DNA from: an uncultured Phycisphaerales bacterium
GTDB taxonomy: Bacteria > Planctomycetota > Phycisphaerae > Phycisphaerales > UBA1924
Length of the DNA stretch: 64,000 nucleotides
Direction: 5' to 3'
Assembly: GCA_937974035.1 (NCBI GenBank)
Contig: CALJIV010000049.1
Coordinates: 10,638-74,637, forward strand
Shown: piece by piece, positions 3,032 to 43,733 of the stretch
How the letters are laid out: every line of letters begins with the position of its first letter
Numbering within the stretch: the first letter of the stretch is position 1
The notes under the pieces: model-generated
What the model saw: only the letters and a program-made list of their open reading frames with translations
What the model was told of the DNA's origin: nothing
Database searches by the model: none
Made by a program: the position numbers and the translations under genes

Positions 3032-3414
3032 GGTCGAACTCCCGTTGGCCCGTGGTTGCAGGCCTGCGGGAAAGGTCGGCAACTTTCGCCGATCTCCCGA
3101 GCTCGCGACCATGCGAGGGGCGTGTTCGCTCGGGTCTGCGACGATGGGGGGGAGCGGGGCGTGCGGGGGGGACGTGGGGGTGCTGACGGCTGGGAAGGGC
3201 GTGCGGGCGCGGTGGAACCCATGGTTCGGGGCCGAGCGGGCCCAGCGGCGTGGGAGACCTGTTGTTTACGGACCCCGCGATCTGTCTCAAACATCGGACC
3301 TGGGGGAAGTTGTGCGGGGGGGTAAGCCCGATATCATGGGCCCCGGCGGCCGCGCACGGGTGCGCGGCGGTTGTGACTTGATAGCCGCGCCTTTGGCGCA
3401 CGGAGTTGTCCAGC

Positions 3415-4347
3415 GTGATTGAACCGACCTCGGAACGCGGGAGGAAGCTGGCGGCGCTGTCCGCGCGCCTGCGAGTTCTGCACAGCGAGCTGGCCGATCA
3501 GCCCGCGGAGATCCGCGCCGAGCAGCTTCGGGACGAAGTCCAGAGGGCCACGGCGAGCATCGCCCCCGGCGAGCGGGAGGCCTTCCTGACCGGTCTTCTT
3601 GAGCAGTTCCCCACCTGGGCGGACGGGGGCCCGAGCGCCGCGCCTTCGCCCGCGCCTGCCACTGCCGCGGCTGCTCCCCCGCCGGAAATCAAAGACCCCA
3701 AGGTGCTGGCGGAGAAGCTCATCGAGAACTCCCACAACCTGAGCGACGCCGAGCGGGCGGACATCGCCTCTCGCCTCGCGGGGGCGGGCTTCTCGCTGGT
3801 GCAGGTGAAGGAGGCCCCGGGCGGGCTGCCCACGGCGCAGGTCACGGAGTTCAAGAAGGTGGTGGGGCTGCCGCCGGAGACGGAGGTCAATCCCGTCCGC
3901 CTGGTGGAGATCGCGTCCCTGCTCGCGGAGTTCACGCTGAAGCTCGAGCCCTGGGCGTGCAGCTATTGGCGCGACCTGGCTCCCGACGCGAAGAACCAGA
4001 TTTACCAGATCCTGAACAAGGATCTGCCGCGGTACGCGGCGGGGGACGACAAGCTGACGAAGGAGGGGATGCACAAGAACGTGTACAAGCTGCGCAGCCT
4101 GGTCTCGCTGCTGATGAAGGGCGTGATCGAGGCGGGCAAGCAGTTCTCGCGGGATCACCTTGCGAGGTACTCGATCGAGGCCATCCGCGAGGCGGCCCCG
4201 CGCGAGACGTTCAAGAGCGACGAGTACCGCTGCTGGAAGCAGTACGAGCGTCTGATGGAGGGGGTGGACGCGGCGGCGATCGAGAAGCGGCTCAAGCAGG
4301 TGATCGCCAGGGACGTGGACGCCGGGTTGAGCCAGGTGATCCGGTAG
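3415..4347 (+). CDS. hypothetical T6SS-associated protein in the fha/tagH position, with no FHA domain visible
   Basis: Good coding frame directly upstream of tssK. GTG at 3415 has a GGAG 9 nt upstream. The longest ORF starts at TTG 3406, but that codon abuts the GGAG. The protein has a helical N-terminus, a Pro/Ala-rich linker (SAAPSPAPATAAAAPPPE) and a ~200-aa C-terminal domain of unknown family. Confidence 0.7.
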   Translation: MIEPTSERGRKLAALSARLRVLHSELADQPAEIRAEQLRDEVQRATASIAPGEREAFLTGLLEQFPTWADGGPSAAPSPAPATAAAAPPPEIKDPKVLAEKLIENSHNLSDAERADIASRLAGAGFSLVQVKEAPGGLPTAQVTEFKKVVGLPPETEVNPVRLVEIASLLAEFTLKLEPWACSYWRDLAPDAKNQIYQILNKDLPRYAAGDDKLTKEGMHKNVYKLRSLVSLLMKGVIEAGKQFSRDHLARYSIEAIREAAPRETFKSDEYRCWKQYERLMEGVDAAAIEKRLKQVIARDVDAGLSQVIR

Positions 4348-4408: not shown

Positions 4409-5824
4409 ATGTCGCAGATCGGACAGATCCATTGGCACGAGGGGTTGTTCCTCCAGCCCCACCATCTCCAGACAATGCAGCGGGACCTGGCGGAGACCAG
4501 CGCGCGGGAGCGGCGGCTCTCGTGGCCCTACCCGTACGGCCTGATCGACCTGCGCATCTCGACCGATGCGCTTGAGAACATGCTGGTGCGGATCGACCGT
4601 CTTCGGGCGATCATGCCCAGCGGTCTGGAGATCGACGTTCCGGGCAACGCGGACATTCCGGCGCTGGACATCAAGCGTGTGTTCCAGGCCAGCAGCGGGT
4701 CGTTCACGGTGAGCCTGGCGGTGCCTCTGTGGCAGGCGCAGCGGGCCAACACCGTCGAGCCCACGCCCGCGCAGGGCGGCGGCGGCGCGGCTCACCGTGC
4801 CGTGGCGGAAGAGGCCCGCATCAAGCGGCTCTACCGCGTGGCCGAGATCACCCGTCCCGACGAGAACACGGGCGAAAACCCCCAGCCGGTGATCGTGCGC
4901 CGCTACAACGCGCGCCTGGTGGTGGAGGGGGACGACACCAGCGACATGGAAGTCCTGCCGCTGGTGCGCATCATCCACGCGGCGCAGGAGAGCACTGTTC
5001 CGCGTCCTGACCCCTCCTTCGTGCCGCCCTGCCTCGTGATCGGCGGCTCGCCGACGCTGCGCAACCTGCTCCGCGACCTGGGCGCGGCGGTGGAGGCCTC
5101 GCGCAAGGAGCTGGTGAACCAGATGACCCGCGGCGGGTTCGTCCCCGAGAACCTGCGCGGGCCGCAGCTCATGCAGCTGCTGCGTCTGCGCACGCTCAAC
5201 AAGTTCGCGGCGCGCCTGCCGGTGCTTGTGGCCGGGGGCACGACCGGCGGCGGCTCGATCACGCCCTATCAGGCGTACCTGGAGCTGCGCGAGCTGCAGG
5301 GCGAGCTGGCCGCGCTCTCGCCCGACCGCGATCCCTTCGAGGCTCCCCGCTACGACCACGACAATCCGGGCGTGGTGTTCGAGGAGCTGGACCGGCGCAT
5401 CCGGCCGCTGCTCCGCGGCGACATCCAGAAGAAGTTCCTGCAGGTGCCCTTCACGCGCCAGGACGGCGTCCTGGCGGCGACGCTCACCGACGAGCACCTC
5501 ACGCAGCCCAACGGCTACTTCATCGGCATCCGCACGAAGATGGACCCGACGCAGCTCGGCAAGCTGGTGGAGGATCAGGACCGCTTCAAGCTCATGCCGC
5601 GGAGCATGATCAAGCTCAACATCTACGGCATCAAGCTGGTGGAGGAGCGGCACCCGCCGATGGAGATGCCCAGCAGCATCGACCTGCACTACTTCCGCGT
5701 GGACATCGGCGAGAGCAAGAAGATGTGGGAGCGGATGACGGGCGAGAAGGCCATGGCCATCCGCTGGCCGGAGAACGAGAACTTCGAATACCAGGACGTG
5801 TCGCTGTACATGACGGTGCCGTGA
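4409..5824 (+). CDS. tssK: T6SS baseplate protein TssK
   Basis: 471 aa. The N-terminus IHWHEGLFLQPHHLQ matches the conserved TssK start. Position is before tssL-tssM. Confidence 0.9.
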   Translation: MSQIGQIHWHEGLFLQPHHLQTMQRDLAETSARERRLSWPYPYGLIDLRISTDALENMLVRIDRLRAIMPSGLEIDVPGNADIPALDIKRVFQASSGSFTVSLAVPLWQAQRANTVEPTPAQGGGGAAHRAVAEEARIKRLYRVAEITRPDENTGENPQPVIVRRYNARLVVEGDDTSDMEVLPLVRIIHAAQESTVPRPDPSFVPPCLVIGGSPTLRNLLRDLGAAVEASRKELVNQMTRGGFVPENLRGPQLMQLLRLRTLNKFAARLPVLVAGGTTGGGSITPYQAYLELRELQGELAALSPDRDPFEAPRYDHDNPGVVFEELDRRIRPLLRGDIQKKFLQVPFTRQDGVLAATLTDEHLTQPNGYFIGIRTKMDPTQLGKLVEDQDRFKLMPRSMIKLNIYGIKLVEERHPPMEMPSSIDLHYFRVDIGESKKMWERMTGEKAMAIRWPENENFEYQDVSLYMTVP

Positions 5825-5843: not shown

Positions 5844-6536
5844 ATGACGCTTGTCGAGATCTGCGAACCGCTGCTGGAGTACGTGTGCCGCCTCAACCGC
5901 CTCGGGCGCAAGGGCGGGCGCGCGGACTTCGGGGTCATCCGCGGCGAGATCAAGAGCCTGTTCGCGGAGATGCGGGCCAAGGCCGACGCCACGCCGGGCA
6001 TGAGCGGGCCCTACACCGAGATCGAGCTGGTCCTGATGTTCTTCGTGGACTCGATGATCCTCAACAGCAACCTCGGCGGGGGCTGGAAGCCGCTCTCGCA
6101 CGAGCGGGGCGAGCTGGGCTTCGAGGAGAAGTTCTGGGATCTGCTGGAGGACGCGCTCAAGGACCCGAGCGACTCGGCCACGCAGCGGCTGGCGGTGTTC
6201 TACGTGTGCATCGGCCTGGGCTTCACCGGGCTGTACACGGGGCAGTACGACTACATCCGCCGCAAGATGCTGGAGATCTCGGCGCGTCTGCGCGGGTTCA
6301 TCGACGCGGACCAGGCGGCGCGCATCTGCCCCGACGCCTACGAGAACGTGGACACGCGCAACCTGACGCAGCCTCCCAACCGCAGCCTGACGGCGATGGT
6401 CATCGCGCTGGTGGCGATCACGGGCGTGCTGCTGGTGGCCTACGTGCAGATGTTCCGCCATGCCGCGGGGGAACTCAGCGGCTCGCTGGGGGCGATCCAG
6501 CAGAGCCACGAGCAGAGCGGCAAGGCCGGGACCTGA
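5844..6536 (+). CDS. tssL: T6SS membrane-complex protein TssL (DotU family), with no peptidoglycan-binding extension
   Basis: 230 aa. DotU-like core (LAVFYVCIGLGFTGLY) and a single C-terminal TM helix (LTAMVIALVAITGVLLVAYV) with only a short tail. GAGGAA lies upstream of the ATG. Confidence 0.9.
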   Translation: MTLVEICEPLLEYVCRLNRLGRKGGRADFGVIRGEIKSLFAEMRAKADATPGMSGPYTEIELVLMFFVDSMILNSNLGGGWKPLSHERGELGFEEKFWDLLEDALKDPSDSATQRLAVFYVCIGLGFTGLYTGQYDYIRRKMLEISARLRGFIDADQAARICPDAYENVDTRNLTQPPNRSLTAMVIALVAITGVLLVAYVQMFRHAAGELSGSLGAIQQSHEQSGKAGT

Positions 6537-6560: not shown

Positions 6561-9500
6561 ATGCTGTGGTCAGGATTCACGAACCTCCCACGTCCGATTC
6601 AGGCCCTGGCGCTGCTGGCGAGCGGGGTCTGCGTCGTCTCGGTGGCGATGTCCTTCTTCGACACGAGCAACCCGTTCTGGCGGTGGCTGGCGATCGGGTT
6701 CGTCGCCGTGTTCGTGCTGGTCGCGCTGTACCTGCTGGTGATGAAGCTGCGCGACAAGGCCAAGAGCGGCCCCTTCGCCTCGCTCATCGCCAAGGCCGGC
6801 GTCGGGCGCGCGGCGGTGGACCCCGCGCAGAAGGCCCGCATGGACGACCTGCGGAAAAAGTTTGAGGAGGGCGTCAACGCCTTCAAGAGCGCGGGCAAGG
6901 ACCTCTACAGCCTTCCCTGGTTCCTGCTCGTCGGCCCCAGCGGCTCGGGCAAGACCGAGGCGATGCGCCACTGCAACGTGGGCTTCCCCCCCGGCCTGCA
7001 GGACTGCCTGCAGGGCACCGGCGGCACGATGAACATGCACTGGTGGTTCACCAACCACGCGGTGGTGCTCGACACCGCGGGCCGCATGTTCATGGAGGAG
7101 GCGGCGGACGGCCAGGCGACGGAGTGGAAGGAGTTCCTCAAGCTCCTGAAGGACTGCCGCCCCAACGCACCCATCAACGGGCTGCTGCTGGTGATCTCCG
7201 CCGAGAGCCTGCTCAAGGACACCGCGGACAAGATCGAGAAGACCGCCAGCGCCATCGCCCGCCAGCTCGACGTGGTGCAGCGCACGCTCGACGTCCGCTT
7301 CCCGGTGTTCGTCATCGTCACCAAGTGCGACAAGATCGTGGGCTTCCGCGACTTCTTCGAGACGCTCAACGATCCCGCGCTGCAGCACCAGATCCTGGGG
7401 TGGAGCAACCCCGCCCCGCTGGACGAGCCCTTCAAGCCCGAGCAGGTGGATCAGCACCTCGCCAGCGTGCGCGCCCGCCTCATGAAGCGGCGCATGGGCC
7501 TGCTGCAGAACCCCATCCACACCAGCGACCCCAGCGCCCGCCGCACTGACCAGGTGGACGAGCTGTTCGAGCTTCCCGACAACCTGATGCGCATCGCCCC
7601 GCGCCTGCGCCGCTATCTGGAGATGATCTTCGTCGCGGGCGAGTGGAGCCCCAAGCCGCTCTTCCTCCGCGGCATCTACTTCACCAGCTCCATGCGTGAG
7701 GGCCAGGCCCTCGACGTCAGCCTCGCCGAGGCCCTGGGCATCGACGTGGAGTCCATCCCCGGCGGCAAGGAGTGGGACAAGGACAAGGCCTACTTCCTCC
7801 GCGACGTCTTCATGAACAAGGTGTTCAAGGAGAAGGGGCTGGTCACCCGCGCGGCGAACGTCAGCAAGGCGCTGGCGAAGCAGCGGCGGCTGATCCTGGG
7901 CATCTCCACCGCCACGGTGGTGGTGGTGACGGGCGTCGCCGTGCTGGGTTGGTTCCAGTTCAAGAGCTCGCTGGGCCCGCCGAGCCGGTTCTGGTCCCAG
8001 GTGCGCCTGGCCTACGCCGGTGATCCCGACGGCGAGCGCGACCCGCTCGACATCGAGGTCATCAAGAGCGAGGACGGCAAGACGTGGACCTATGTGGGCG
8101 GGCGCGAGTGGGGCCCGCGCGAGGCGCTCGACGATGATCGGCTCGCCACGCCGACGGAGCTGGTGCTTGAGTCCGCGGCGCAGACGCGCCGGCAGATCAA
8201 GCCGCCGCTGATCGCCGCGCCGATCGTCGGCTGGAGCTCGACGTGGAGCGAGGAGCAGGTGCGGGCGCACCGGGCGGTGGCCGAGCGTGCGGTGATCGTT
8301 CCGCTGGTGCAGGCCGCCCGCAGCAAGCTGATGGTGGAGAAGAAGTGGGGGCCCGACGCCGTGGGCGCCCTCGCCCAGCTTCTGCGCCTGCAGACCTACG
8401 CCCTGGGCGCCAAGCCCGCGGACAACGACCCCGGGACCAAGCCGGTGAAGGGTATCGACGCGGACGTGCTGTTCCGCTACGTGCTGGGCGCGGAGTACAA
8501 CACGCGCACCGGCTTCGGCGCGGACCGCGAGAAGCTGGTGAAGGCCGTCGCCGACGCCTACCCCGAGGACTGGGACCCGAAGCGCAACAAGCCCGCGGAG
8601 GTTCTGGGCGGGGCGGACCGCGACTCCATCATGACGATGAACCTCGCGGTGGATGAGCTGGTCAAGCACCTGACCGCTCTGGGCGCCAGCGAAGGCAGCA
8701 AGATGGCGCACCTGACGGACCTGCTCGACGGTCTGTCCACCTTCCGCGATGAGGAGACCAAGCTGCTGAGCCTGGAGTGGTTCCGCTCCGGGCCGGAGGC
8801 GAAGCTGCCGCAGACGCTGGCCGAGTACACGCTCTTCGAGGCGGCGTTCCTCAACAGCGCCGACAAGATCGCGGACAGCCGCGCGAAGATCGACGCCGTC
8901 GCCAAGGCCCTGGGCCCGGCGATGAACGACGTGCCCAGCCTGCTCAAGACGGCGGGCGATGAGCTGCAGAAGGAGATGGCCCAGTACTTCGCGATGCTGC
9001 GGGCCCAGCTCCCCGAGGTGCCCGAGAGCGAGCGCGACTCCTCCAAGATTCACAGGGAGCTTGTGGACCTTCGCGCCAAGCTCGACGAGCAGTCCAAGAC
9101 GGTGGACGCCGCCGTCCGCGCCAAGCTCGAGCAGATGGCGGGCCTGGTGAAGGAGCTGGCCCCGATGGTGGCTCCGGGCCACGCCGACCGCACCGACGCC
9201 CGCGCCTACGTGGCGCGTGCCGAGGCGTACCGCATCGCGGCGGAGGACGTGAAGAACGCCACGGCCCCCCTGACGCCGCCCGTGGACCCCGCGGTGCCCG
9301 TCAGCGACGTGCCGCCTTCGCTCGCCTCGCAGGTCGAGCTTGTGGACAAGAACGTGGCGCAGCTTTCCGCGGCGATCGCCGCGTGGGGCGCGTGGGTTCC
9401 CGATTCGGGCCAGCAGCCCGTGCTCGCGTCGGCGCGGGACGCCTCCGTCAGCCTGGCGCGCCGGGCGCTTGAGGTGGCGCGTTCGCGCCGCCTGGGCGAG

Positions 9501-11060
9501 CTGGCGAGCAAGACCATCGCGGGCTGGCCGCAGACGCCCGCCGCGGTGGCGAATCGCGTGCAGACCGTCGGCACGGGCCGGATCAACGAGGGCACGTTCA
9601 AGAAGGTGATGCGTCCGCGCGTCCCGCTGAGCGAGATGGAGTCGGGCGGGGAGTTCTCGCGCGAGTACCACCCGGACGCGGCCCGCGAGGTGCTGGGCGA
9701 CTGGGCCAAGCTGCGCGAGCTGATCGAGCCGACCTCCAGCGGGGCGCAGCGCGCGGTGATCGGGCGTGAGGAGCTTCGGGCCGATCGCGCCTACCGCATC
9801 AGCGCCGACGCCACCGCCGAGTTCGTCCGCGACTACATCCGCTACTGGCGCGCCCAGGCCCTGGAGGCCAGCCGCCCGAACAAGGCCACGTGGGCCGAGT
9901 TTGGCGAGAAGCTCAAGTCCGCGCCTCACTTCGAGATCAAGAGCGAGCTTCAGGCCCTGTACGACACCGTCAAGCAGGCCCTGAGCGCCGTGCCGCCCTC
10001 CGCGGCGTGGGACGACGTGCTCAACTCCGCCAACGGCGAGTTCGAGGCCGCCTTCACCGGCCTGTCGAAGCCCGCGTTCATGGACGAGACCAAGGTCAGC
10101 CTGAGCGCGTGGAACAAGCTGGTGGATATGGGCCCGGCCAAGGCCCGCGACACGCTGCTGGATTCGATGCGGCGCGAGAAGATCCGCGACGAGTACTTCA
10201 GCGTCTACCGCGCCGACTCGCTGGGTCTGAAGTACTGGAATGACCTGCTCGTCAACGGCCTGACCTGCCTGGTCCGCGAGACCCAGGGCGAACTGGAGGC
10301 GGCGCGCGACGGGCTGGTGAAGGACGCCAAGGGCGTGCCTCTGGCCTTCGGCCCCTCGGACCTGCGCGACCTCAGCCCCGCCGCGGTCGCAAAGATCAAG
10401 GGCTGGGCGGACAAGCTCGAGGCTCTGGCCGGCAACAACCGCAGCGCCGCCGCGGCGGAGTCGCTCGCGCCGGAAATCAAGACCCTCATGCTGCGGCTGG
10501 CGGGAGCGGACATCTTCCCCGACCCGCTCAGCCGTCAGTGGTTCTCGAGGCTGCGCGCCGTGGTCAACGTCGTCGGCCAGGACAAGCCGCTGGGCGTGAT
10601 GATCAACTACCCGGTGGAATACGACCGGCCCCGCAAGCCGGGTCTGGTGGACGACGTCCGCGACAACTTCCGCTACGCGGCCCTGCGCGTGGGCGGGCTG
10701 GCCCGCGGCCCGGTCTTCAGCCTCATCAACCCGATCGAGGAGGCCAAGCTCAAGGAGCTGCGCATCGAGCTGCCTCTGCCCGACGGGCAGACCAGCGAGG
10801 TGTACCTGTACAAGCAGGACCCCGGCCTGGGCGGCATGAACCAGCCCGACGCGAAGATCGTGCTGCCCGGCAACTGGAGCTTCCTGCGCCAGATGCTGAT
10901 CGAGTCGGGCGAGGCTCAGCGTGATGAGAAGACCGGTCAGTGGAAGGTGCTTCTGACCACCACCGACGGATCGATGTACCTGTGGTTGACGCTGACGTTC
11001 GACCAGGAGCTCCCGCTGCCCAGCGAGTGGCCCCGCGTCGAGCAATGGCCCGTGCCGTGA
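6561..11060 (+). CDS. tssM: T6SS membrane-complex protein TssM (IcmF family), unusually long at 1499 aa
   Basis: Two N-terminal TM helices, Walker A GPSGSGKT, and a third TM near residue 445-465 (LILGISTATVVVVTGVAVLGWF). A very large C-terminal region follows. Gene sits between tssL and tagF. Confidence 0.92.
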   Translation: MLWSGFTNLPRPIQALALLASGVCVVSVAMSFFDTSNPFWRWLAIGFVAVFVLVALYLLVMKLRDKAKSGPFASLIAKAGVGRAAVDPAQKARMDDLRKKFEEGVNAFKSAGKDLYSLPWFLLVGPSGSGKTEAMRHCNVGFPPGLQDCLQGTGGTMNMHWWFTNHAVVLDTAGRMFMEEAADGQATEWKEFLKLLKDCRPNAPINGLLLVISAESLLKDTADKIEKTASAIARQLDVVQRTLDVRFPVFVIVTKCDKIVGFRDFFETLNDPALQHQILGWSNPAPLDEPFKPEQVDQHLASVRARLMKRRMGLLQNPIHTSDPSARRTDQVDELFELPDNLMRIAPRLRRYLEMIFVAGEWSPKPLFLRGIYFTSSMREGQALDVSLAEALGIDVESIPGGKEWDKDKAYFLRDVFMNKVFKEKGLVTRAANVSKALAKQRRLILGISTATVVVVTGVAVLGWFQFKSSLGPPSRFWSQVRLAYAGDPDGERDPLDIEVIKSEDGKTWTYVGGREWGPREALDDDRLATPTELVLESAAQTRRQIKPPLIAAPIVGWSSTWSEEQVRAHRAVAERAVIVPLVQAARSKLMVEKKWGPDAVGALAQLLRLQTYALGAKPADNDPGTKPVKGIDADVLFRYVLGAEYNTRTGFGADREKLVKAVADAYPEDWDPKRNKPAEVLGGADRDSIMTMNLAVDELVKHLTALGASEGSKMAHLTDLLDGLSTFRDEETKLLSLEWFRSGPEAKLPQTLAEYTLFEAAFLNSADKIADSRAKIDAVAKALGPAMNDVPSLLKTAGDELQKEMAQYFAMLRAQLPEVPESERDSSKIHRELVDLRAKLDEQSKTVDAAVRAKLEQMAGLVKELAPMVAPGHADRTDARAYVARAEAYRIAAEDVKNATAPLTPPVDPAVPVSDVPPSLASQVELVDKNVAQLSAAIAAWGAWVPDSGQQPVLASARDASVSLARRALEVARSRRLGELASKTIAGWPQTPAAVANRVQTVGTGRINEGTFKKVMRPRVPLSEMESGGEFSREYHPDAAREVLGDWAKLRELIEPTSSGAQRAVIGREELRADRAYRISADATAEFVRDYIRYWRAQALEASRPNKATWAEFGEKLKSAPHFEIKSELQALYDTVKQALSAVPPSAAWDDVLNSANGEFEAAFTGLSKPAFMDETKVSLSAWNKLVDMGPAKARDTLLDSMRREKIRDEYFSVYRADSLGLKYWNDLLVNGLTCLVRETQGELEAARDGLVKDAKGVPLAFGPSDLRDLSPAAVAKIKGWADKLEALAGNNRSAAAAESLAPEIKTLMLRLAGADIFPDPLSRQWFSRLRAVVNVVGQDKPLGVMINYPVEYDRPRKPGLVDDVRDNFRYAALRVGGLARGPVFSLINPIEEAKLKELRIELPLPDGQTSEVYLYKQDPGLGGMNQPDAKIVLPGNWSFLRQMLIESGEAQRDEKTGQWKVLLTTTDGSMYLWLTLTFDQELPLPSEWPRVEQWPVP

Positions 11061-11085
11061 TGCAGGCAACCAGGAGGGCCCTCGG

Positions 11086-14000
11086 GTGAGCCAGGCAAGG
11101 ACCAAGGACGGGATCGGCAAAGGCGTGCGGGTGCATGTCGCCGCGTTCGGCAAGCATCCCGGCTGGGACGACCACATCGAGGAGATCGGCCTCGATACCT
11201 CGATGCTGGTCAACGCCAAGCGGCTTCTGTACACCGAGTGCATCGGCGGGTGCATCGACTCGGGCGAGTGGGAAAAGCTCGACGAGGACCGCCGCATCCC
11301 CTTCCGGCACCAGTTCTACTGGCGCACCCCCGAAGGGCTGCTGATCGGCCGCATGTGGGCCAGCCGCGACGGCAAGGGCCGCACCAAGTATCCGATGGTC
11401 GTCTGCGCCGTGATCCACGGCGTGCCGGACTCGTGGGCCGTGGAGCAGGTGCTGCCGCGGCTCGCCGTCGTGGAGGAAAAGTGCGGGCAGACCAGCTCCG
11501 CGGAGCTGGTGCGGCTGGCCATCGGCGAGTGCCGCTCCAGCCTCGAAGCCGCCGCCGCGGCGTACGACGGCTCGCCGGGCGAGTCTCCCGCGCAGCGTCT
11601 CTCGCGCCTCGTGCAGAGCCCCGAGCTTTCGGCCAACAACGGCGAGGGCCTCAAGCGCGTGCTCTACGAGATGTCGCGCGAGTTCGTGGACTTCCGTCCC
11701 AGCGGCAACGCCGCCCTCCGCTCGCGCAACGCCGTGCTCCCGGCCCAGCAGATCCGCGTGCCCAAGGGCCTGACCGCGCCGGGCGAGGCCGCCCTCGCTT
11801 GGATGACGCTGCTGGATCAGGAAATCTCTCGCTCCATCCCGCTGCTGCTCGTGGAACCCGTGGACGGGCGGTACATCGACCTCATCGTCGGTGACATCAA
11901 GCCCAAGCAGTTCTACTGCGTCCGCGCGGGCGAGAAGGCGCTGGGCCTCACCAGCGACGTGCCTTACACGATGGACGCCGCGGCTGTTCAGGAAGCGCAG
12001 GACAAGATCGACGCGTGGTCCCAGGGGCGCACCGTCGCGGGCGCGGAGCCCATCACCAGCGGCGCGGCACCGCTCCGCTCGAAGAAGGCGCTGCGGTTCG
12101 CGCTGCTCGCAGGCGCGGGTTTGGCGGTGATCGCGGTTGTGTTCCTCTTGACGCGCGCCGGCACGCCCGACCCGGCCAACGCCGAGCCGCCCGAGCCCCC
12201 GCGTCCGCAGGTGCGCCGCGCTCCGGCTCCGCAGCCGGAAGAGCCCATCGCGAAGGAAACCGAAGAGCCCGCCGAGCCTGCCGCGCAGGACCCCACCGAC
12301 CCGCGCGTGAACTGGACGTATGACCAGGCCGCCGCTCATGCACGGGAAACGCTGGCCCGCCTGAACCGGGAGCTCGCGGCGGAAAACAGCCCTCCGCGCG
12401 CGGGCGAGCGTCAGCATCTGGAAGACATCGAAAAACGCGCCGCGATCATCCGCAACAAGCCCTGGCGGCCCGCGACGCGGGAGGCGCTGGTGCGCGACAT
12501 GGCCGCGGTGGACGCGGAACTCAAGAACGTGCAGATCGCGCTGGATGAAGCGCTCGCGGGCGTCGCGGCGAGGATCGATGCGTTCCTGATTCAGCGAGCC
12601 GCCACGACGCCGGTTCAGAACCGCATCCTGGCCGCGGCGTGGGGGGCGGGGCTGGCCGCGATCGACCGCTCCGCCGGTTGGAAGGAGGCCCGCGCGCGGG
12701 TCAGCGCGCTGGAGACGAACCTCAAGGCCGCGGAGGCCGCCGTCGCGGGCGTGGCGCTCGTCCAGCCTCCCGAAGACTCGATGCTGAACGCGGAGGTGTT
12801 CAAGACGGCTTCCGCGGCTCGGCGCGACGCGGCCCTGCGTGCCGCGGGCGATGCCGCCGCCGCGGGCGATCGCGAGCGAATCGATGCCGTGGCCAAGGAA
12901 CTGCGGGATTGGAACGGGTACGCGGTCTCGCTGCTGGACCAGGGTGTGCAGCTCGCTGCGATGGTGCAGTCGGGCGGCGTGCTCGATCCTCAGGCCAAGC
13001 CCTCGGCGTCGCAGATCATCGCTTCGATGCAGTCCTCGCCCGCTTACAACGACCTGAGCGAAGCGTTCCGGCCGGTGCTCGATCAGGTGGAGGCGGTCCG
13101 CGCGGTGGGAAGCCTCAACGACGCAGAAGCGTTGATCGACGTGATCAAGGGCGCGGCGAACGACGCCTCGGGGCGTCGCACGCCCGCCGCGGTCGCCGCT
13201 TGGCAGCGTCTGTGCGATCTTGGCTGGCCCTCGCTTCCGGCGGAACTCTCGGAGGCCGCCGCGATCCGCAGCGGGGCCCTCGGCCGCGCTCTGGCCGCGG
13301 TTCCGGACAGCGCTCAGCGCGAAAGCCTGGAGAAGCTCACGCAGGCTCCCTCCCGCGAGATGTGGCGACGTTTCACGGCGAAGGGGGGCGTCAACGAGGC
13401 GGGGCTGGAAGCGGCCGTCGCCGCCCGCGACGTGCTCACCACTGGCGACGCGGCGTCGTCTCTGCCTGCGACGATCCGGTACAACCTGCTGCGCAAGGAA
13501 CTGGCCGACGCACTGAAAGCCGCCGATGCGGAGCCGCTGTCCAGGCGGAGAGAGGCGCGTCTCGCGGCGGTGGAGTCTTTCCGTCGGCAGGTCGCGGCTT
13601 TGGGGCCGGAGATCGCGGCGAAGCCGAAGGTCGCATCGTTCATCGCCGCGGTGAACAAGGCGGCCGAGTCGATGGCCGCGCCGGACGTCAGCAACCTCGG
13701 GCCGGGCAGCGTGGGCTGGAAGGCTGGGCCGATGACCGACGACGGCACGGTCACCTACACGCACGACAAGGCCGGACAGCTCACCTTCCGCCGCATCTCC
13801 GGCACGGAGAGCGTGGCGTTCATGAGCACCACGGAGGTTTCCGTGGGGCAGTTCATCGAGGCGATCTCCAGCGCGGGCAAGTGGGACGAGGTGCGCCAGC
13901 TCCTCATCAACTATCCCGCCGGAGGCGACGATCCCCGGCGCGGCCCGCGCACCTGGGAGTGGACCACCAACCCCGACGCTCCGATGGCCGTCGCGGCTCC

Positions 14001-14739
14001 CGGCGAGGGGGACACCAGCAGCGGCTGGCTCCGCGTCAAGACCTCCATGGCGGGCAAGGCGTACTACCCCGAGGGGCTATCGGTGGAGCCACCCTCGGCC
14101 GATCACCCGATCCAGTACATCTCGCCAGCCGCGGCGGTGCTCGCCGCGCGCACGCTCGGGTGCCGCCTCCCGACAACCGCGGAGTGGCAGGCGGCCGCTG
14201 CTGCGACCAACACAACAGCGCAGAACTTGCGCGATGCCACGTGGCGTCGTCAGTTCGAGCGCTGCAAGGAGCTGCTCTCGTCGAGCCCGGACTTCCCCTC
14301 CGGGGGCGTGTTCCGGCCCGCCGATGCTCCTCGCGTTCAGCCGTTGCAGGATGGGTTCCCCGCCGTGGAAACCGACGACCAGACCCTCTGGTTCTCGAAA
14401 GTCGGCGGTGGACCGAACTTCCAGCACCTGATCGGCAACGTAGCGGAGTTTGTTTGGGAGGACAGCGCGGGGATGGAGGCGCTCCCGGCCGTGGCGGGGC
14501 CGATCAAGTCTGCGCTGGGGCGGTGGGAAAAGTTGCGCGTGGTGGGGGGGTCTGCCCTGTCGGCGAAGGACATTCCGACCAACGTCCCGCAGGCGCCGGC
14601 CTTTACTCAGTCGCCGGAGGGTTGGTCGGACGTCGGTTTCAGGCTCGCGTTCACCGCGCCGGCGGGCGCGGGGGAAGGCGGGGCGGCGGATCTCGAAGCG
14701 GCGCTGGCCTCCAGCGGCTACCTCCTGAGCGACGAGTGA
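11086..14739 (+). CDS. tagF: TagF-like N-terminal domain / single TM helix / long helical region / C-terminal FGE-SUMF1-like domain fusion (1217 aa)
   Basis: GTG start with AGGAGG 8 nt upstream. The N-terminus VHVAAFGKHPGWDDHI resembles the TagF (DUF2094) G-x-F/Y-G-K-x-P-x-x-x-D motif, and the gene sits in the tagF position after tssM. TM helix FALLAGAGLAVIAVVFLL is at ~12097..12150. The C-terminus has FGE motifs: STTEVSVGQF, GCRLPTTAEWQAA, HLIGNVAEFVWE, GGSAL, GFRLAFT. Confidence 0.7.
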   Translation: MSQARTKDGIGKGVRVHVAAFGKHPGWDDHIEEIGLDTSMLVNAKRLLYTECIGGCIDSGEWEKLDEDRRIPFRHQFYWRTPEGLLIGRMWASRDGKGRTKYPMVVCAVIHGVPDSWAVEQVLPRLAVVEEKCGQTSSAELVRLAIGECRSSLEAAAAAYDGSPGESPAQRLSRLVQSPELSANNGEGLKRVLYEMSREFVDFRPSGNAALRSRNAVLPAQQIRVPKGLTAPGEAALAWMTLLDQEISRSIPLLLVEPVDGRYIDLIVGDIKPKQFYCVRAGEKALGLTSDVPYTMDAAAVQEAQDKIDAWSQGRTVAGAEPITSGAAPLRSKKALRFALLAGAGLAVIAVVFLLTRAGTPDPANAEPPEPPRPQVRRAPAPQPEEPIAKETEEPAEPAAQDPTDPRVNWTYDQAAAHARETLARLNRELAAENSPPRAGERQHLEDIEKRAAIIRNKPWRPATREALVRDMAAVDAELKNVQIALDEALAGVAARIDAFLIQRAATTPVQNRILAAAWGAGLAAIDRSAGWKEARARVSALETNLKAAEAAVAGVALVQPPEDSMLNAEVFKTASAARRDAALRAAGDAAAAGDRERIDAVAKELRDWNGYAVSLLDQGVQLAAMVQSGGVLDPQAKPSASQIIASMQSSPAYNDLSEAFRPVLDQVEAVRAVGSLNDAEALIDVIKGAANDASGRRTPAAVAAWQRLCDLGWPSLPAELSEAAAIRSGALGRALAAVPDSAQRESLEKLTQAPSREMWRRFTAKGGVNEAGLEAAVAARDVLTTGDAASSLPATIRYNLLRKELADALKAADAEPLSRRREARLAAVESFRRQVAALGPEIAAKPKVASFIAAVNKAAESMAAPDVSNLGPGSVGWKAGPMTDDGTVTYTHDKAGQLTFRRISGTESVAFMSTTEVSVGQFIEAISSAGKWDEVRQLLINYPAGGDDPRRGPRTWEWTTNPDAPMAVAAPGEGDTSSGWLRVKTSMAGKAYYPEGLSVEPPSADHPIQYISPAAAVLAARTLGCRLPTTAEWQAAAAATNTTAQNLRDATWRRQFERCKELLSSSPDFPSGGVFRPADAPRVQPLQDGFPAVETDDQTLWFSKVGGGPNFQHLIGNVAEFVWEDSAGMEALPAVAGPIKSALGRWEKLRVVGGSALSAKDIPTNVPQAPAFTQSPEGWSDVGFRLAFTAPAGAGEGGAADLEAALASSGYLLSDE

Positions 14740-14762
14740 GCAAGTGGAGAATCAGGGCCGAC

Positions 14763-14791
14763 TTGACGACGCGCCGAGGTGCTCGTAGGTT
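14763..14791 (+). promoter_or_regulatory. candidate sigma70-like promoter upstream of tpsB
   Basis: TTGACG (14763..14768), a 17-nt spacer, then TAGGTT (14786..14791), inside the 190-bp gap between tagF and tpsB. This is motif resemblance only, and promoter rules for this lineage are unknown. Confidence 0.2.
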
Positions 14792-14928
14792 TGACCCCTC
14801 ATGCCGGTGACGTCCGCCGGCAGGTAGCAGGCCGCGCCCGGTCTGCCTGGCCGGTTCTCCGTGCGCCAGGGGGGACAAAGATCGGAGGGGGTCTGGCGGT
14901 GAGCCAAGGAAGCAGAAAAGGAACTGAG

Positions 14929-17007
14929 ATGAGGGTCCCAGCATTCCGTCCGCGGGTGTGGCGTGCTCCACGATCCGGCGCCACGTGCCGATGGCTGCGC
15001 GAACGCAGCGTGCTGACCGCGCTCGGCGCGGCGGCCTTGCTCTCTTCCCAGGCTCTGGCGCAGGGGACGCCCGAAGATGCGCGCAAGCCTGCGATCGACA
15101 TCAACGCGGTGCAGCCCGCGCCCGGCCAGCCTCCCGCTGAGCCCGCTCCGGGCGAGTCCCTCGACGCGCCTCCGGGCACGGCGACCGAGCGCGACGGCGG
15201 ACGCTACCCCGTCTCCCGCTTCCTCATTGAGTATCACAGCGAGCACCCCGAGCACCCGTCCATCGACGATCTCATGGAGGCGGTGGTGCGCCTGGGCGTC
15301 ACGCCCGACGGCTACGTCGCGTACCGCGAGGGGATGCCCTCGGCGGAGCTGCGCATCGCGGACGTGGTGGAGGGCACCGGCGGCGTGTTCTATCGCAGCG
15401 CGCTCAACTCTGTGGCCCGCGCCATCGTCGAGCGGCTGAACAGGAAGGGCTTCATCGGCATCTTCGTGCAGCTCCACCCCGACGACATCGACGAGACCAA
15501 CGGGGCGGACCTGCGCGCGGGCAAGCGCCCCGAGCTGCGGCTGGTCGTGTGGACGGGCGTCGTGAAGAACGTCCGCACCATCACCTCCGGCGACCGCCTG
15601 AAGAAGGAGGTGGACGCGGGGCTGGTCGATCGCGTCAACACCGATGACCCGGTGCTGAACCGCATCCGCGATCAATCGCCGCTGCAGGTGGACAACCTGC
15701 TGCGCAAGGACCTGATGGACGACTTCGTCTTCCGCCTCAACCGCCACCCCGGCCGGCGCGTGGACGTGGCGATCTCCCCCGGCGAGAACCCGGAGGAGGT
15801 GGTGGTGGACTACCTCGTCTCCGAGGCCAAGCCCTGGTCCATCTATGCCCAGCTCTCCAACACGGGCACCAAGGCCACGAACCAGTGGCGCGAGCGCTTC
15901 GGCTTCGTGCACAACCAGCTCACCGGGCACGACGACGTGCTTCGCGTGGACTACATCACCGGCGGCTTCCAGGACTCGCACTCGGTGGCCGTGAACTACG
16001 AGTTCCCGCTGCTCTCCGACCGTCTGCGGTTGCGGACCTACGGCGCGTTCGCGACGTTCGAGGCGTCCGAGGTCGGCCTGTCCGACGAGTCCTTCTCGGG
16101 GACGACGTTCTCCGCGGGCGCGGAGCTGTCGGGCACCATCTTCCAGCACCGCGAGCTGTTCATCGACGCCGTCGGCGGCATCCGCTGGGAGAACATCCAC
16201 GTCGAGAACGAGACGTTCGTGACCGAGGCGAGGGAGAACTTCGTGATTCCCTACGTGGGCCTGCGGCTCGACCGCGCCACCGAGGCCGCGACGACCTACG
16301 CCACCGTCACGATGGAGTTCCAGGTGCCCGAGCTCGCGGGCACCGACGAGGACGAGATCGACTTCCTCGGACGTCCCGAGGTGGACGACCACTGGCAGGT
16401 GCTCAAGTTCTCCTTCGAGCAGTCCTTCTACCTCGAGCCGCTGTTCAACCCCGGCGGCTACAGCGGACGCAGCGCCCGCGGCCCGCTCACGCTCGCGCAC
16501 GAGATCGCCTTCTCCGCGCGCGGCCAGTGGGCCTTCGGCGCGCGTCTGATCCCCAATGAAGAGGAAGTCGCCGGCGGCTTCTTCTCCGTCCGCGGCTACC
16601 CCGAGTCGGTGGTGGCGGGCGACAACACCGTGATCGCCTCGCTCGAGTACCGCTTCCACCTTCCCCGGGTCTTCCCCGTGAGCGACCCGGGCACGCTGTT
16701 CGGAAGGGAAGTGGGTTTCCTTGGGAAAGACTTCCGATACGCCCCGCAGCAGCCCTTCGGGCGTGCCGACTGGGACCTGGTCTTCAAGGCGTTCATCGAC
16801 GCGGCGCGGACGGAGAACAACGACCCGCAACCCGGCGAGAACGACCACACCCTTGTTGGCGCGGGACTCGGAATCGAGTATCAGTTCAAGCGCAACGTCA
16901 GTGCTCGGCTGGAGTACGGGTTCCCGTTCGAAGTCGTTCGGGATGAATCGGAGAACGTGGACGTCGGCGACGGCCGCTGGCACTTCTCCCTGACGCTTCT
17001 GTACTGA
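14929..17007 (+). CDS. tpsB: two-partner secretion outer-membrane transporter (TpsB; ShlB/FhaC/HecB family)
   Basis: 692 aa from the ATG at 14929, with AAGGAA motifs upstream. Signal peptide ends ...SSQALAQG. Length and beta-barrel-like C-terminus ending in an aromatic residue (SLTLLY) fit the family. It lies immediately upstream of a TPS-domain giant protein. Confidence 0.8.
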   Translation: MRVPAFRPRVWRAPRSGATCRWLRERSVLTALGAAALLSSQALAQGTPEDARKPAIDINAVQPAPGQPPAEPAPGESLDAPPGTATERDGGRYPVSRFLIEYHSEHPEHPSIDDLMEAVVRLGVTPDGYVAYREGMPSAELRIADVVEGTGGVFYRSALNSVARAIVERLNRKGFIGIFVQLHPDDIDETNGADLRAGKRPELRLVVWTGVVKNVRTITSGDRLKKEVDAGLVDRVNTDDPVLNRIRDQSPLQVDNLLRKDLMDDFVFRLNRHPGRRVDVAISPGENPEEVVVDYLVSEAKPWSIYAQLSNTGTKATNQWRERFGFVHNQLTGHDDVLRVDYITGGFQDSHSVAVNYEFPLLSDRLRLRTYGAFATFEASEVGLSDESFSGTTFSAGAELSGTIFQHRELFIDAVGGIRWENIHVENETFVTEARENFVIPYVGLRLDRATEAATTYATVTMEFQVPELAGTDEDEIDFLGRPEVDDHWQVLKFSFEQSFYLEPLFNPGGYSGRSARGPLTLAHEIAFSARGQWAFGARLIPNEEEVAGGFFSVRGYPESVVAGDNTVIASLEYRFHLPRVFPVSDPGTLFGREVGFLGKDFRYAPQQPFGRADWDLVFKAFIDAARTENNDPQPGENDHTLVGAGLGIEYQFKRNVSARLEYGFPFEVVRDESENVDVGDGRWHFSLTLLY

Positions 17008-17094
17008 GCGGCGATAGAGGTACGAACAGGCATCAATCGTCCCGCGCGGGCCAGGAAGGGCCCCCGGGGCTGAACGAGACACGAGGGCAGGGTT

Positions 17095-31966: not shown

Positions 31967-32059
31967 TGAGGTTCGAACTGTCCGAGGGTCCGGCGATGGG
32001 CTTGCCCCTCTGGAAAGAATGGGACAGGGTTCCCGCGTTAGTAGGAAGGAGTGTTGGCT

Positions 32060-32545
32060 ATGCCTTTTGATGGATTCCTCAAGATTTCCGGTATCCAGGG
32101 CGAGTCGAAGGACGAGAAGCACCGTAATGAAATCGACGTGCAGTCCTTCAGCTATGGCGTGACGCAGTCCACCTCCGTCTCCACCGGTGGTGGTCTGACG
32201 GCGGGTAAGTCTTCGCTCGGCGCCTTCAGCTTCATTCAGCAGTACCACAAGGGCTCGATCCCGCTGTTCGTCGCCGCGGCCACCGGTAAGCACATCGACG
32301 AGGTGGTCTTCACCGCCCGCAAGTCCGCCGGCGAGCAGCAGCTCGAGTACCTGGTCGTCACCTTCAAGCACTGCCTCGTCACCAGCGTTCAGGTGAGCGG
32401 CGGCACCGAGAACGAGATCCCGACGGAGACCGTCGAGATCCAGTACTCCGAGGTCCGGTTCAAGTACAAGGAGCAGAACGACAAGGGCGGCGTGCTCTCC
32501 GAGGTCGAGGGCGGCTACGACCAGAAGCTCAACAAGAAGCTCTGA
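32060..32545 (+). CDS. hcp: Hcp (TssD) tube protein, copy 1
   Basis: 161 aa from the ATG at 32060, with GGAAGGA 9 nt upstream. The Hcp start is FDGFLKISGIQGESKDEKHRNEIDVQSFSYGV. Confidence 0.92.
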   Translation: MPFDGFLKISGIQGESKDEKHRNEIDVQSFSYGVTQSTSVSTGGGLTAGKSSLGAFSFIQQYHKGSIPLFVAAATGKHIDEVVFTARKSAGEQQLEYLVVTFKHCLVTSVQVSGGTENEIPTETVEIQYSEVRFKYKEQNDKGGVLSEVEGGYDQKLNKKL

Positions 32546-32606: not shown

Positions 32607-32649
32607 TTCATTGACCAATGGACGGCCTTGGCCGCGTGGGAAACGACCC

Positions 32650-33144
32650 ATGCCCGACAATTTTGACGGATTCCTCTGGATTGATGGCGTCAAAAGCGAA
32701 TCCAAGGACCCCGACCATAAGCACTGGATCGATGTCGAAGGCTTCACCTACGGCTGCGAGGTGAACGACTTCGCTATCGGCGAGGGCGGCAAGCTCGTTG
32801 CCGACGATCCCTCCGTCAAGCCCTTCACCTTCACCCAGGGTATCCACAAGGGCTCGCCCACGCTCTTCCAGTACTGCGTCACGGGGAGGCCGATCCCCAC
32901 GGCTGAGTTCCACGCCCGCACCGCGGGCGGCGAAAAGCCGCACATCTACTTCAGGGCCTACTTCACCGACTGCCTGATCACCAACGTCTCCGTCACCACG
33001 ATGGACGACAACCCTTACCCCGTCGAAACGATCACGCTGGCCTACCGCAAGGTCCGGATGGTCTACCACGAGCAGAACACGGTCACCGGAGGCGCGTTCG
33101 GCGGCGAGGTTGAGACGGAGTACGACCAGGCGGCCCACGCCTGA
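32650..33144 (+). CDS. hcp: Hcp (TssD) family protein, divergent copy 2
   Basis: 164 aa. FDGFLWIDGVKSESKDPDHKHWIDVEGFTYGC matches the Hcp N-terminal pattern. The rest of the protein is diverged from copy 1. Confidence 0.85.
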   Translation: MPDNFDGFLWIDGVKSESKDPDHKHWIDVEGFTYGCEVNDFAIGEGGKLVADDPSVKPFTFTQGIHKGSPTLFQYCVTGRPIPTAEFHARTAGGEKPHIYFRAYFTDCLITNVSVTTMDDNPYPVETITLAYRKVRMVYHEQNTVTGGAFGGEVETEYDQAAHA

Positions 33145-43718: not shown

Positions 43719-43733
43719 CAGGAGGGAGAAGCC

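Follow-up and report, generated by a model that had tools for sequence, protein, structure and literature searches.

The gene directly downstream of tssM in a T6SS cluster of an uncultured Phycisphaerales bacterium raises the question of whether a TagF-type brake can be built into the membrane as a single protein and, if so, what its periplasmic part might do there. The cue that lifts TagF repression is still unsettled, even for the best-studied T6SSs, and a recent study found that TagF requires membrane retention to work. We examined this gene in the 64,000-nucleotide stretch of DNA that contains it (hereafter, the window; Table 1), where an initial annotation had read it as a tagF in its usual slot, fused across the membrane to a large FGE-like domain.

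The open reading frame (11086–14739, + strand) begins with GTG, 25 nt after the tssM stop codon (11058–11060), and encodes 1217 aa; its position directly 3′ of tssM is thus the tagF slot, as annotated. In each 100-codon block, third-position GC was 0.83–0.94 in the frame of the gene versus 0.45–0.78 in the other two, and a frameshift is therefore not indicated anywhere along 11086–14739. Independent assemblies yielded the identical 1217-aa protein as well (38 + 6 contigs), and both results bear out that the sequence is one gene. Its product has a four-part layout, with a TagF domain, a transmembrane (TM) helix, a spacer and stalk, and an FGE domain in one chain, and we are highly confident in this architecture and in the topology described below.

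Table 1. Coordinates of the gene, the parts of its product and neighbouring T6SS features within the window.
Feature	Position	Strand	Basis
Partner protein P0262, C-terminal 935 aa of 1267 aa	2..2809	+	Cut by window edge; full length read beyond the window
Conserved ~310-aa gene between the partner gene and tssK	3406..4347	+	No Pfam match
tssK	4409..5824	+	Pfam T6SS_VasE, E 3e-69
tssL	5844..6536	+	Pfam DotU, E 2e-17
tssM	6561..11060	+	Pfam IcmF-related_N, E 9e-56; TIGR03348 VI_IcmF, E 5e-81
Shine–Dalgarno-like AGGAGG, 8 nt 5′ of the GTG start	11072..11077	+	Direct sequence reading
Whole gene, bitopic TagF-TM-stalk-FGE-like protein, 1217 aa	11086..14739	+	ORF; uniform GC3; identical copies on 44 contigs
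Two-domain TagF-like module, predicted cytoplasmic, residues ~12–320	11119..12045	+	AF2/Foldseek; invariant columns; weak TagF_N matches in relatives
Single TM helix, residues 338–356, RSKKALR just before	12097..12153	+	Kyte–Doolittle; TM in relatives
Pro/Glu-rich juxtamembrane spacer, residues 357–405, periplasmic side	12154..12300	+	Sequence composition
Ala-rich helical stalk, residues ~406–860	12301..13665	+	23% Ala; profile matches; paralogy
FGE-sulfatase-family domain, residues ~880–1190 (Pfam 912–1187), without catalytic Cys pair	13723..14655	+	Pfam PF03781; Cys analysis

Assignment of the N-terminal region to TagF depended on the kind of evidence considered. Neither Pfam TagF_N (PF09867) nor NCBIfam TagF matched the window protein, even at E ≤ 10, and no TagF sequence model was significant for it, a result that formally counts against the annotated TagF domain. 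Weak TagF_N matches were present in 14 of 44 relatives (best E = 0.011), and those inspected individually scored 13–15 bits against a 27-bit cutoff and were colinear and in register. By contrast with the profile search, an AF2 model of the module (pLDDT 90.5) retrieved TagF structures as five of the seven top Foldseek matches in the PDB, all with probabilities of 0.99–1.0: Acinetobacter baylyi TagF (9t0n; best match, E = 5.8e-9, probability 1.0), three chains of 6iz8 (best E = 5e-5) and 2qnu. The alignment to 9t0n spanned 335 columns and covered both TagF domains at 13% identity. Family-invariant residues were concentrated in two N-terminal motifs, FGKHPGW-DH (residues 21–30, within the stretch AAFGKHPGWDDHI, residues 19–31, which had been quoted as TagF-like) and S-DGKGR--YP (part of W-S-DGKGR--YP, 91–103). 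We take these to correspond to G-K-x-P...D and S-x-D-x-x-G-R...P, presumably the canonical TagF consensus. Both fall where the weak TagF_N matches of relatives align (profile positions 3–112), and their clustering agrees with the two conserved N-terminal TagF loops, alpha and beta in PaTagF1 (bioRxiv 10.64898/2025.12.08.692957). With TagF sequence models below significance, it is fold, motifs and synteny that carry the assignment; judged by predicted structure, the first ~320 aa form a TagF-type domain. It shares its N-terminal fold, tssM neighbour and, presumably, two loop motifs with TagF of the Pseudomonas aeruginosa H1-T6SS (PaTagF1; PA0076; 2qnu, 6iz8), but it falls below the Pfam TagF_N threshold. 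PaTagF1 itself, of ~230 aa, is soluble and binds Fha1, whereas the window cluster has no detectable FHA protein. The closer comparison is A. baylyi TagF, not only the best structural match but likewise part of a T6SS cluster without Fha and the threonine-phosphorylation pathway.

The segment FALLAGAGLAVIAVVFLL (residues 338–355; nt 12097–12150) is a hydrophobic helix and the sole segment with a Kyte–Doolittle 19-residue mean above 1.6 (peak 2.59); an N-terminal signal peptide is absent from the 1217-aa protein. Four K/R residues lie within the 15 residues before the helix and one after it, and a TM helix occupies the equivalent position in 50 relatives, although the family as a whole shows only a slight positive-inside bias (2.76 versus 2.08 K/R). 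With a single TM helix, the TagF half and the FGE half are therefore placed on opposite sides of the membrane, upholding the membrane-spanning fusion that had been proposed. Membrane recruitment of TagF has a precedent in A. baylyi, where TagF function needs TagZ, a single-pass protein with a periplasmic domain that holds TagF at the inner membrane. TagZ binds TagF via an N-terminal peptide, whereas the window protein carries tether and periplasmic domain in the same chain, fused C-terminal to TagF. The periplasmic domain of TagZ is variable and predicted to be disordered, in contrast to the conserved stalk and FGE-like fold of the window protein, and it is dispensable for TagF-mediated inhibition in A. 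baylyi, which weakens the analogy as regards a sensing role for the window ectodomain. Agrobacterium tumefaciens TagF-PppA also joins a TagF module to a C-terminal second domain for T6SS control, but there the partner is a cytoplasmic PP2C phosphatase, whereas the window protein has a TM helix and periplasmic module and no phosphatase.

FGE-family membership of the C-terminal domain was confirmed by Pfam FGE-sulfatase (PF03781), which matched residues 912–1187 when the whole protein was scanned (E = 2.3e-9; 37.7 bits against a 23.3-bit cutoff) and more strongly when the domain was scanned by itself (E = 9.2e-11, 42.3 bits). The family profile picked up human FGE among PDB entries (E = 7e-16), and all of the motifs cited in the initial annotation were present (TTEVSVGQF, RLPTTAEW, GNVAEF and GFRLAF). 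Its further claim, that the catalytic Cys pair is missing, also stood: no Cys lies between GGS and GFR, the site of the two copper-binding cysteines of FGE, whose positions are filled by other residues in the alignment to human FGE. The only Cys residues of the domain are C1026 and C1060 (none in 1150–1190), and no Cys-rich column occurs between GGS and GFR in 39 relatives. Proteins of the FGE-sulfatase fold that likewise lack the copper-binding Cys pair include pFGE/SUMF2, PvdO, PorK/GldK and Tsi3, which use the fold extracytoplasmically for binding or scaffolding; none of these is fused via a TM helix to TagF or a kinase-fold cytoplasmic domain. We infer that the periplasmic stalk and FGE-like domain form a binding module without an enzymatic role.

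The surroundings of the gene matched the initial annotation in part. No Pkinase, PP2C or FHA Pfam match was found among the 28 cluster proteins scanned, but the statement that the locus lacks PpkA finds no support in view of the first gene of the window, which encodes a kinase-fold membrane protein, P0262. This gene lies 8.3 kb upstream of the TagF-FGE gene, with the kinase-like domain and TM helix encoded upstream of the window. P0262 consists of an N-terminal Hanks-kinase fold (modelled with moderate confidence from a five-sequence alignment, pLDDT 69.3; best structural match, Xanthomonas citri PknS, PDB 9eed), one TM helix and a periplasmic domain, whose stalk and FGE-like module are paralogous to residues 634–1190 of the TagF-FGE protein (BLASTP, 33% identity over 587 aa, E = 2e-70), such that the stalk is common to both proteins from residue 634 on. 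This order of kinase fold, TM helix and periplasmic domain is that of PpkA-type Hanks kinases (P. aeruginosa PpkA and PknS). Unlike them, P0262 lacks the HRD Asp and DFG, and the Fha substrate is absent from the cluster. Across five P0262 homologues the HRD Asp is replaced (E/E/G/N/R) and the DFG motif is absent; the protein is therefore predicted to be inactive, that is, a pseudokinase. The ectodomains also differ, being composed of TPR repeats in PknS and of a stalk and FGE-like domain in P0262; PpkA, unlike P0262, carries a vWA domain.

The fusion is not peculiar to this locus. Among the best 150 family representatives, 78 are at least 1000 aa long, and an FGE domain was found in 33 of the 39 long members tested. 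The TagF-TM-FGE form occurs in 42 of 80 GTDB loci, all from PVC bacteria and nearly always directly after tssM, and is both the usual form of the family in Phycisphaerae and widespread across PVC bacteria. The window and almost all of the 80 loci share the gene order tssK-tssL-tssM-X; where a locus extends far enough, a TssM match nearly always precedes the tagF-like gene on its own strand, and a gene of 301–310 aa occupies the position matching 3406..4347 in other loci. TagF forms in PVC bacteria range from soluble to TM-only to TM-plus-FGE (or PEGA); because 22 of the 80 relatives are short and soluble and another 4 possess the TM helix alone, the periplasmic module is dispensable for the core role of the family. 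In the literature library searched, we found no description of the TagF-TM-stalk-FGE architecture, in agreement with the earlier remark that no described T6SS regulator is known to have this layout. On balance, the window protein appears to belong to a branch of the TagF family that is specific to PVC bacteria, and within it to be anchored in the membrane.

By analogy with characterised TagF proteins, the window protein is probably a T6SS regulator that acts via its TagF module, which, like its counterparts in Pseudomonas and Acinetobacter, would act post-translationally as a brake on T6SS assembly, either at the baseplate or at the membrane complex. The TM helix would do in cis what TagZ does in trans, keeping TagF at the inner membrane beside TssL/TssM, while the stalk and FGE-like domain would link some envelope component to the brake. 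We suggest only tentatively that this periplasmic module passes on a signal that gates T6SS firing. The likeliest partner of the ectodomain would be the paralogous ectodomain of the co-encoded P0262, in which case the two proteins might work as a transmembrane switch that needs no phosphorylation, TagF supplying the repressor arm and the pseudokinase opposing it. Ligand-dependent pairing in the periplasm (a shared envelope ligand might be an incoming effector, a contact cue or a fragment of the cell wall) would draw the pseudokinase to TagF on the cytoplasmic side, and the brake would come off. In this full form, in which PVC T6SS firing is controlled by two bitopic proteins whose paralogous ectodomains bind each other or a shared ligand so that the pseudokinase frees TagF, the model is speculative and unlikely to be right in every part.

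A structural role is possible, if also somewhat doubtful. Here, both proteins with a stalk and FGE-like ectodomain would belong to the PVC T6SS membrane complex as components that span the envelope, take the place of TssJ and anchor the complex to, or space it from, the peptidoglycan or outer membrane, with the TagF fold as a cytoplasmic baseplate adaptor. Consistent with such a role, no TssJ (T6SS-SciN) match was found by Pfam among the cluster proteins, and the Acinetobacter T6SS, likewise TssJ-less, employs an additional membrane-complex protein. The FGE-fold PorK/GldK proteins, also matched by the family profile (E = 3e-9), are periplasmic scaffolds of the type IX system, and the post-tssM position is conserved in nearly all loci. 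The stalk has profile matches to TolA domain II, a periplasm-spanning helical domain (E = 2e-5), but also to other long helices, and the likeness may be compositional only. Moreover, the 22 soluble TagF-like relatives lack any periplasmic part in otherwise similar clusters, making an essential structural element unlikely, and characterised TagF proteins are dispensable, with T6SS assembly proceeding without them.

The initial annotation had instead proposed a self-sufficient, one-protein replacement for PpkA/PppA/Fha/TagQRST sensing, which we now regard as quite improbable. Such a scheme would fit the lack of FHA, PP2C and canonical Pkinase Pfam matches in the cluster, the presence, in a single chain, of a periplasmic fold of binding type alongside a TagF module, and one long relative (L086) that has the fusion and no partner gene nearby. 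However, with a kinase-fold TM protein bearing a paralogous module encoded in the same cluster, the fusion is probably not a one-protein replacement, and P0262-type proteins recur in T6SS clusters of other genomes. An FGE-module ORF, of the kinase type or otherwise, also lies upstream of tssK/tssL/tssM where TagF is short; if these ORFs are of the pseudokinase type, an ectodomain-bearing partner exists independently of the fusion. The TagF-FGE fusion is more likely one half of a pair with P0262.

Less probable still is an immunity function, in which the FGE-like ectodomain would bind effectors in the manner of Tsi3, neutralising or detecting incoming periplasmic T6SS toxins: non-enzymatic FGE-like proteins make up an established family of T6SS immunity factors that bind their effectors (Lopez et al., bioRxiv 10.1101/2021.05.21.445229), but the gene sits among core genes after tssM in nearly all loci, outside effector–immunity pairs, and its ectodomain is fused to a cytoplasmic regulator fold and retained across hundreds of species, whereas immunity genes evolve fast. 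Joining of a tagF and an FGE-domain gene by a sequencing frameshift, suggested by the apparent lack of a C-terminal part in P0001 (420 aa), the nearest relative retrieved at first, is refuted by the uniform GC3, the identical copies in independent assemblies and 42 GTDB genomes with an uninterrupted TagF-TM-FGE ORF, the P0001 assembly being full of frameshifts (tssK, tssL and tssM are all fragmented) with FGE fragments just downstream in the same orientation.

Together, these results present a natural, widely conserved TagF that is itself a transmembrane protein with a predicted folded periplasmic binding domain, offering a handle on the cue that releases the brake: the ligand of the ectodomain should be the controller of TagF. 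If the pairing of the TagF-FGE protein with P0262 does act as a two-protein switch, it would explain how Fha-less systems lift TagF repression and would provide the first TagF that reads the periplasm directly. The T6SSs of Planctomycetota and Verrucomicrobiota have hardly been studied, and our analysis gives a first outline of their accessory logic, with no detectable Fha, PppA or TssJ, variable TagF forms and a pseudokinase partner with a paralogous ectodomain. In addition, the FGE fold can be added to the periplasmic domains, sensors or scaffolds, that T6SS regulators carry.

The gene following tssM is a single ORF at 11086-14739(+) (GTG start, with AGGAGG 8 nt and the tssM stop codon 25 nt 5' of it) encoding a 1217-aa protein that joins a TagF-like domain, a transmembrane (TM) helix, a stalk and an FGE-like domain. 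Because the high G+C content of the window (63-72%) gives many long spurious ORFs, the frame was checked by third-position GC (GC3), which in each of twelve 100-codon blocks was 0.83-0.94 in the coding frame versus 0.45-0.78 in the other frames, with no frame switch at the domain boundaries by this measure. Three antisense ORFs opposite real genes (6570-11297(-), 1575 aa; 10750-13764(-), 1004 aa; and 14752-28671(-), 4639 aa) were rejected on their codon-position GC pattern as by-products of high G+C. The identical protein occurs on 38 + 6 contigs, and a 1217-aa product after a 1499-aa TssM was called alike on two independent assemblies. A frameshift join of two genes, an idea prompted by the closest relative first retrieved (P0001, 420 aa), was rejected because the assembly carrying P0001 has every neighbouring T6SS gene in fragments: in this locus (L001, contig_124751_np1212), tssK, tssL, tssM and the TagF fusion are each broken up into a number of short ORFs, seemingly through indel errors, and the FGE fragments of the 420-aa relative come next in the same orientation, so that protein lengths from this record are unreliable. 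With GC3 uniform and the same protein in independent assemblies, the fusion described in the initial annotation stands as one gene, all motifs quoted there are present where they were placed, and its domain calls (TagF fold, one TM helix, and an FGE-sulfatase match without the catalytic cysteine pair) were right.

The N-terminal domain was reached by structure and not by sequence. Pfam and NCBIfam gave no TagF match to residues 1-330 even at E <= 10, and neither phmmer with the N-domain nor hmmsearch with a 44-sequence family profile reached the TagF entries among PDB sequences, which were recovered by fold comparison only. A word-index search returned 262 relatives of the domain, and when 1.84 billion cluster representatives were searched exhaustively with a profile, 1021 proteins came up at E <= 1e-3 (718 of them at E <= 1e-30); the invariant residues of the family fall in two motifs, F21-G-K-H-P-G-W-x-D-H30 and W91-x-S-x-D-G-K-G-R-x-x-Y-P103. 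Weak matches to Pfam TagF_N were found in 14 of the 44 relatives (best E 0.011) and were colinear with the model where inspected (in one case pairing residues 24-130 with positions 3-112 of the 135-position profile). An AlphaFold2 model built from the 44-sequence alignment (mean pLDDT 90.5, pTM 0.88) had Acinetobacter baylyi TagF as its top PDB match (9t0n; E 5.8e-9, probability 1.0), over 335 aligned columns spanning both domains, with P. aeruginosa TagF (6iz8 and 2qnu) also among the best matches. Although the sequence models failed to recognize it, we conclude from predicted fold, motif position and synteny that this domain is a divergent TagF.

Topology was assessed from hydropathy, flanking charges and the lack of a signal peptide. 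Residues 338-356 are the sole segment hydrophobic enough for a TM helix (Kyte-Doolittle 19-residue mean 2.59, no other segment exceeding 1.6), and this one helix places the two halves of the protein on opposite sides of the membrane. As no N-terminal signal peptide is present, the 337-residue N-terminal domain is expected to stay cytoplasmic. The 15 residues leading up to the helix include four Lys/Arg, against one following it. The helix lies at the same place in 50 relatives, where the charge difference is modest and in the same direction (mean K/R 2.76 before versus 2.08 after; favouring the N-terminal side in 26, neither side in 14 and the C-terminal side in 10).

Beyond the helix, a segment rich in Pro and Glu (residues 357-405) leads into residues ~406-860, with an Ala content of 23%. 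In the family profile this region has weak matches to TolA domain II (E 2e-5) and other long helical proteins, which fits an extended helical stalk, though composition may account for the matches. Residues 912-1187 exceed the threshold for Pfam FGE-sulfatase, as the initial annotation had anticipated for the C terminus; the family profile aligned with the whole domain of human FGE (E 7e-16) and also matches FGE-fold domains of non-catalytic pFGE (SUMF2), PorK/GldK and others. FGE catalysis uses two cysteines located between the GGS and GFR motifs. The fusion protein has no cysteine in this interval, its 39 aligned relatives show no cysteine-rich column there, and the conserved residues (RLPT-x-x-EW, GNV-x-E and GFR) are structural ones; because of both features, the domain appears to be an FGE-fold binding or scaffold domain rather than an FGE enzyme.

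The TagF-TM-FGE fusion is real, old and widespread. An N-terminal TagF domain in a protein of 1000 aa or more is found in 78 of the best 150 cluster representatives, and 33 of the 39 long members aligned match FGE-sulfatase (best E 1.5e-47). PEGA domains in 4 of the 39 long TagF-TM relatives and CarboxypepD_reg in one (relatives P0121-P0259) indicate that this TagF branch can exchange its periplasmic module. With each GTDB species represented by a single genome, a scan returned 370 loci, of which the best 80 were all from PVC lineages (Phycisphaerae, Planctomycetia, Verrucomicrobiota and Kiritimatiellae) but for two bins, one labelled Leptolyngbya and one unclassified. These 80 comprised 42 TM plus FGE proteins no shorter than 1000 aa, 5 TM plus FGE-like proteins of ~700 aa, 4 with TagF and TM only, 22 short soluble TagF-like proteins and 7 cut by contig ends; where a locus extended far enough, TssM was almost always matched upstream of the gene and on its own strand. 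The Leptolyngbya-labelled locus (L006, QWIH01000005.1, titled 'Leptolyngbya sp. PLA1') has a TagF-TM-FGE gene that shares 55% identity with ours, in a typical PVC T6SS context, and is probably a planctomycete bin under a misleading name.

The surrounding T6SS cluster begins with a partial gene, a ~313-aa gene, tssK, tssL, tssM, the fusion gene, a TpsB-like gene and a gene for a 3870-aa protein, followed by tssA, tssB, tssC, two hcp genes, tagJ/impE, tssE, tssF, tssG, clpV, vgrG and further genes. Across 28 proteins scanned over the whole cluster (107-51600), no Pfam match was obtained to FHA, PP2C, Pkinase or TssJ (T6SS-SciN) models. Two small unassigned genes (41089-41613 and 43719-44138) could conceal a divergent TssJ or PAAR. 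The slot before tssK is taken by fha or tssJ in some proteobacterial clusters; here it holds the ~310-313-aa gene, which recurs at this point in PVC loci unrelated to ours (L084, 301 aa; L086, 304 aa; L087, 308 aa), and a 310-aa version adjoins P0266, a homologue of the partner P0262 in another metagenome. The TpsB-like gene and the 3870-aa gene look like a two-partner secretion pair inside the T6SS locus: a fragment of the giant protein in the related locus L001 matches a TPS domain, and a ShlB-like gene comes after the TagF fusion in another relative. The genes 3' of vgrG are candidates for effector, immunity or accessory functions, and a similar set precedes P0266.

Features of the T6SS cluster around the TagF-TM-FGE gene (window positions)
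Feature	Position	Strand	Remarks
C-terminal 935 aa of P0262 (1267 aa)	2-2809, continues upstream of window	+	100% identical over window part
~310-313-aa gene	3406-4347	+	just 5' of tssK; no Pfam match
ShlB/FhaC-type (TpsB-like) outer-membrane protein	14779-17007	+	between fusion gene and tssA
3870-aa protein	17095-28707	+	between fusion gene and tssA; no Pfam match
First of tandem hcp genes	32051-32545	+	Pfam T6SS_HCP E 2e-35
Second of tandem hcp genes	32611-33144	+	Pfam T6SS_HCP E 4e-27; ~20-residue N-terminal extension
Two small PG_binding_1 proteins, HEAT-repeat protein, 725-aa amidohydrolase-like match	44142-45277 and 48008-50185	+	3' of vgrG

The partial gene at the window edge encodes a protein paralogous to the periplasmic part of the fusion (33% identity over 587 aa, E 2e-70), the match spanning the distal stalk and FGE-like domain. 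In full length (P0262), it has an N-terminal ~260-aa domain and TM helix encoded upstream of the window; the contigs retrieved by way of tssK all begin at the ~310-aa gene. This N-domain has no Pfam or PDB sequence match, and a word-index search with the first 290 aa of P0262 retrieved no protein, P0262 itself included. From strand 4 to helix F, hhalign weakly (E 0.0015, probability 17%) placed it colinear with the kinase domain of M. tuberculosis PknB, with HGELKPSNVL on HRDVKPANIM. Structure models were built for the cytoplasmic domains of the fusion protein and of P0262, the latter of moderate quality (AlphaFold2, five-sequence alignment, pLDDT 69.3), and Foldseek matched the P0262 model exclusively to Hanks kinases (579 matches at E <= 1e-3), led by X. 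citri PknS (9eed, E 8.6e-7), M. tuberculosis PknB and S. aureus Stk1. The kinase assignment thus draws on the weak hhalign match and the fold comparison of a moderate model. Because the catalytic HRD Asp position is E, E, G, N or R in five homologues, none of which has a DFG motif, the domain is a predicted pseudokinase. P0262 homologues adjoin T6SS genes in other genomes. A tblastn search of the 80 GTDB loci with the kinase-like domain of P0262 gave no match, their 8-kb flanks ending just short of the P0262-gene position. The distant relative L087 has a large protein ending in an FGE module, then the ~308-aa gene, tssK, tssL and, further on, TagF-TM-FGE; six loci have an FGE-module ORF upstream despite a short or TM-only TagF, and L086 has none nearby. 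The initial annotation had taken the locus to lack any PpkA-like component and the fusion to be a one-protein replacement for the PpkA/PppA/Fha pathway; both are wrong or unsupported, given this predicted pseudokinase-TM partner with its paralogous ectodomain.

Characterised TagF proteins are post-translational inhibitors of T6SS assembly, and in A. baylyi TagF works only once recruited to the membrane by the single-pass protein TagZ (bioRxiv 10.64898/2025.12.08.692957). The A. baylyi T6SS and the cluster described here are alike in being without Fha and the phosphorylation pathway. By analogy with these proteins, the observed anatomy, conservation and genomic company of the fusion would most simply be read as a TagF with a built-in tether, sited beside TssL/TssM, whose ectodomain may convey the state of the envelope or else pair up with the paralogous ectodomain of P0262. 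Any antagonism between P0262 and TagF would be by binding instead of phosphorylation, because P0262 has a kinase fold without catalytic residues. The main alternative, that the fusion is a structural part of a membrane complex without TssJ, seems to us less likely, as the periplasmic part is often lost among relatives and so can hardly be an essential structural element. This frequent loss also means that the ectodomain is an accessory refinement and not the core of the family's function.

A full-text literature search, from which subscription journals were largely absent, found no description of the TagF-TM-FGE architecture, and because the literature covered was incomplete, 'undescribed' is provisional. 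In the portion available, a 2025 phylogeny of 655 TagF homologues names no fusion other than TagF-PppA, besides noting divergent C-terminal domains. FGE, sulfatase, Planctomycetes and Verrucomicrobia all go unmentioned in a 2026 review of accessory factors, and the only FGE-like domains known from T6SS biology are those of Tsi3-type immunity proteins (bioRxiv 10.1101/2021.05.21.445229). The organisms bearing the fusion are hard to manipulate, and the finding, real and widespread, is yet an inference from comparative genomics, in which the sensor function is a proposal. Provisionally, what is new is a membrane-spanning format of a TagF-family regulator that may read the periplasm, together with a new type of partner; the fusion is also relevant to the question of how TagF repression is lifted.
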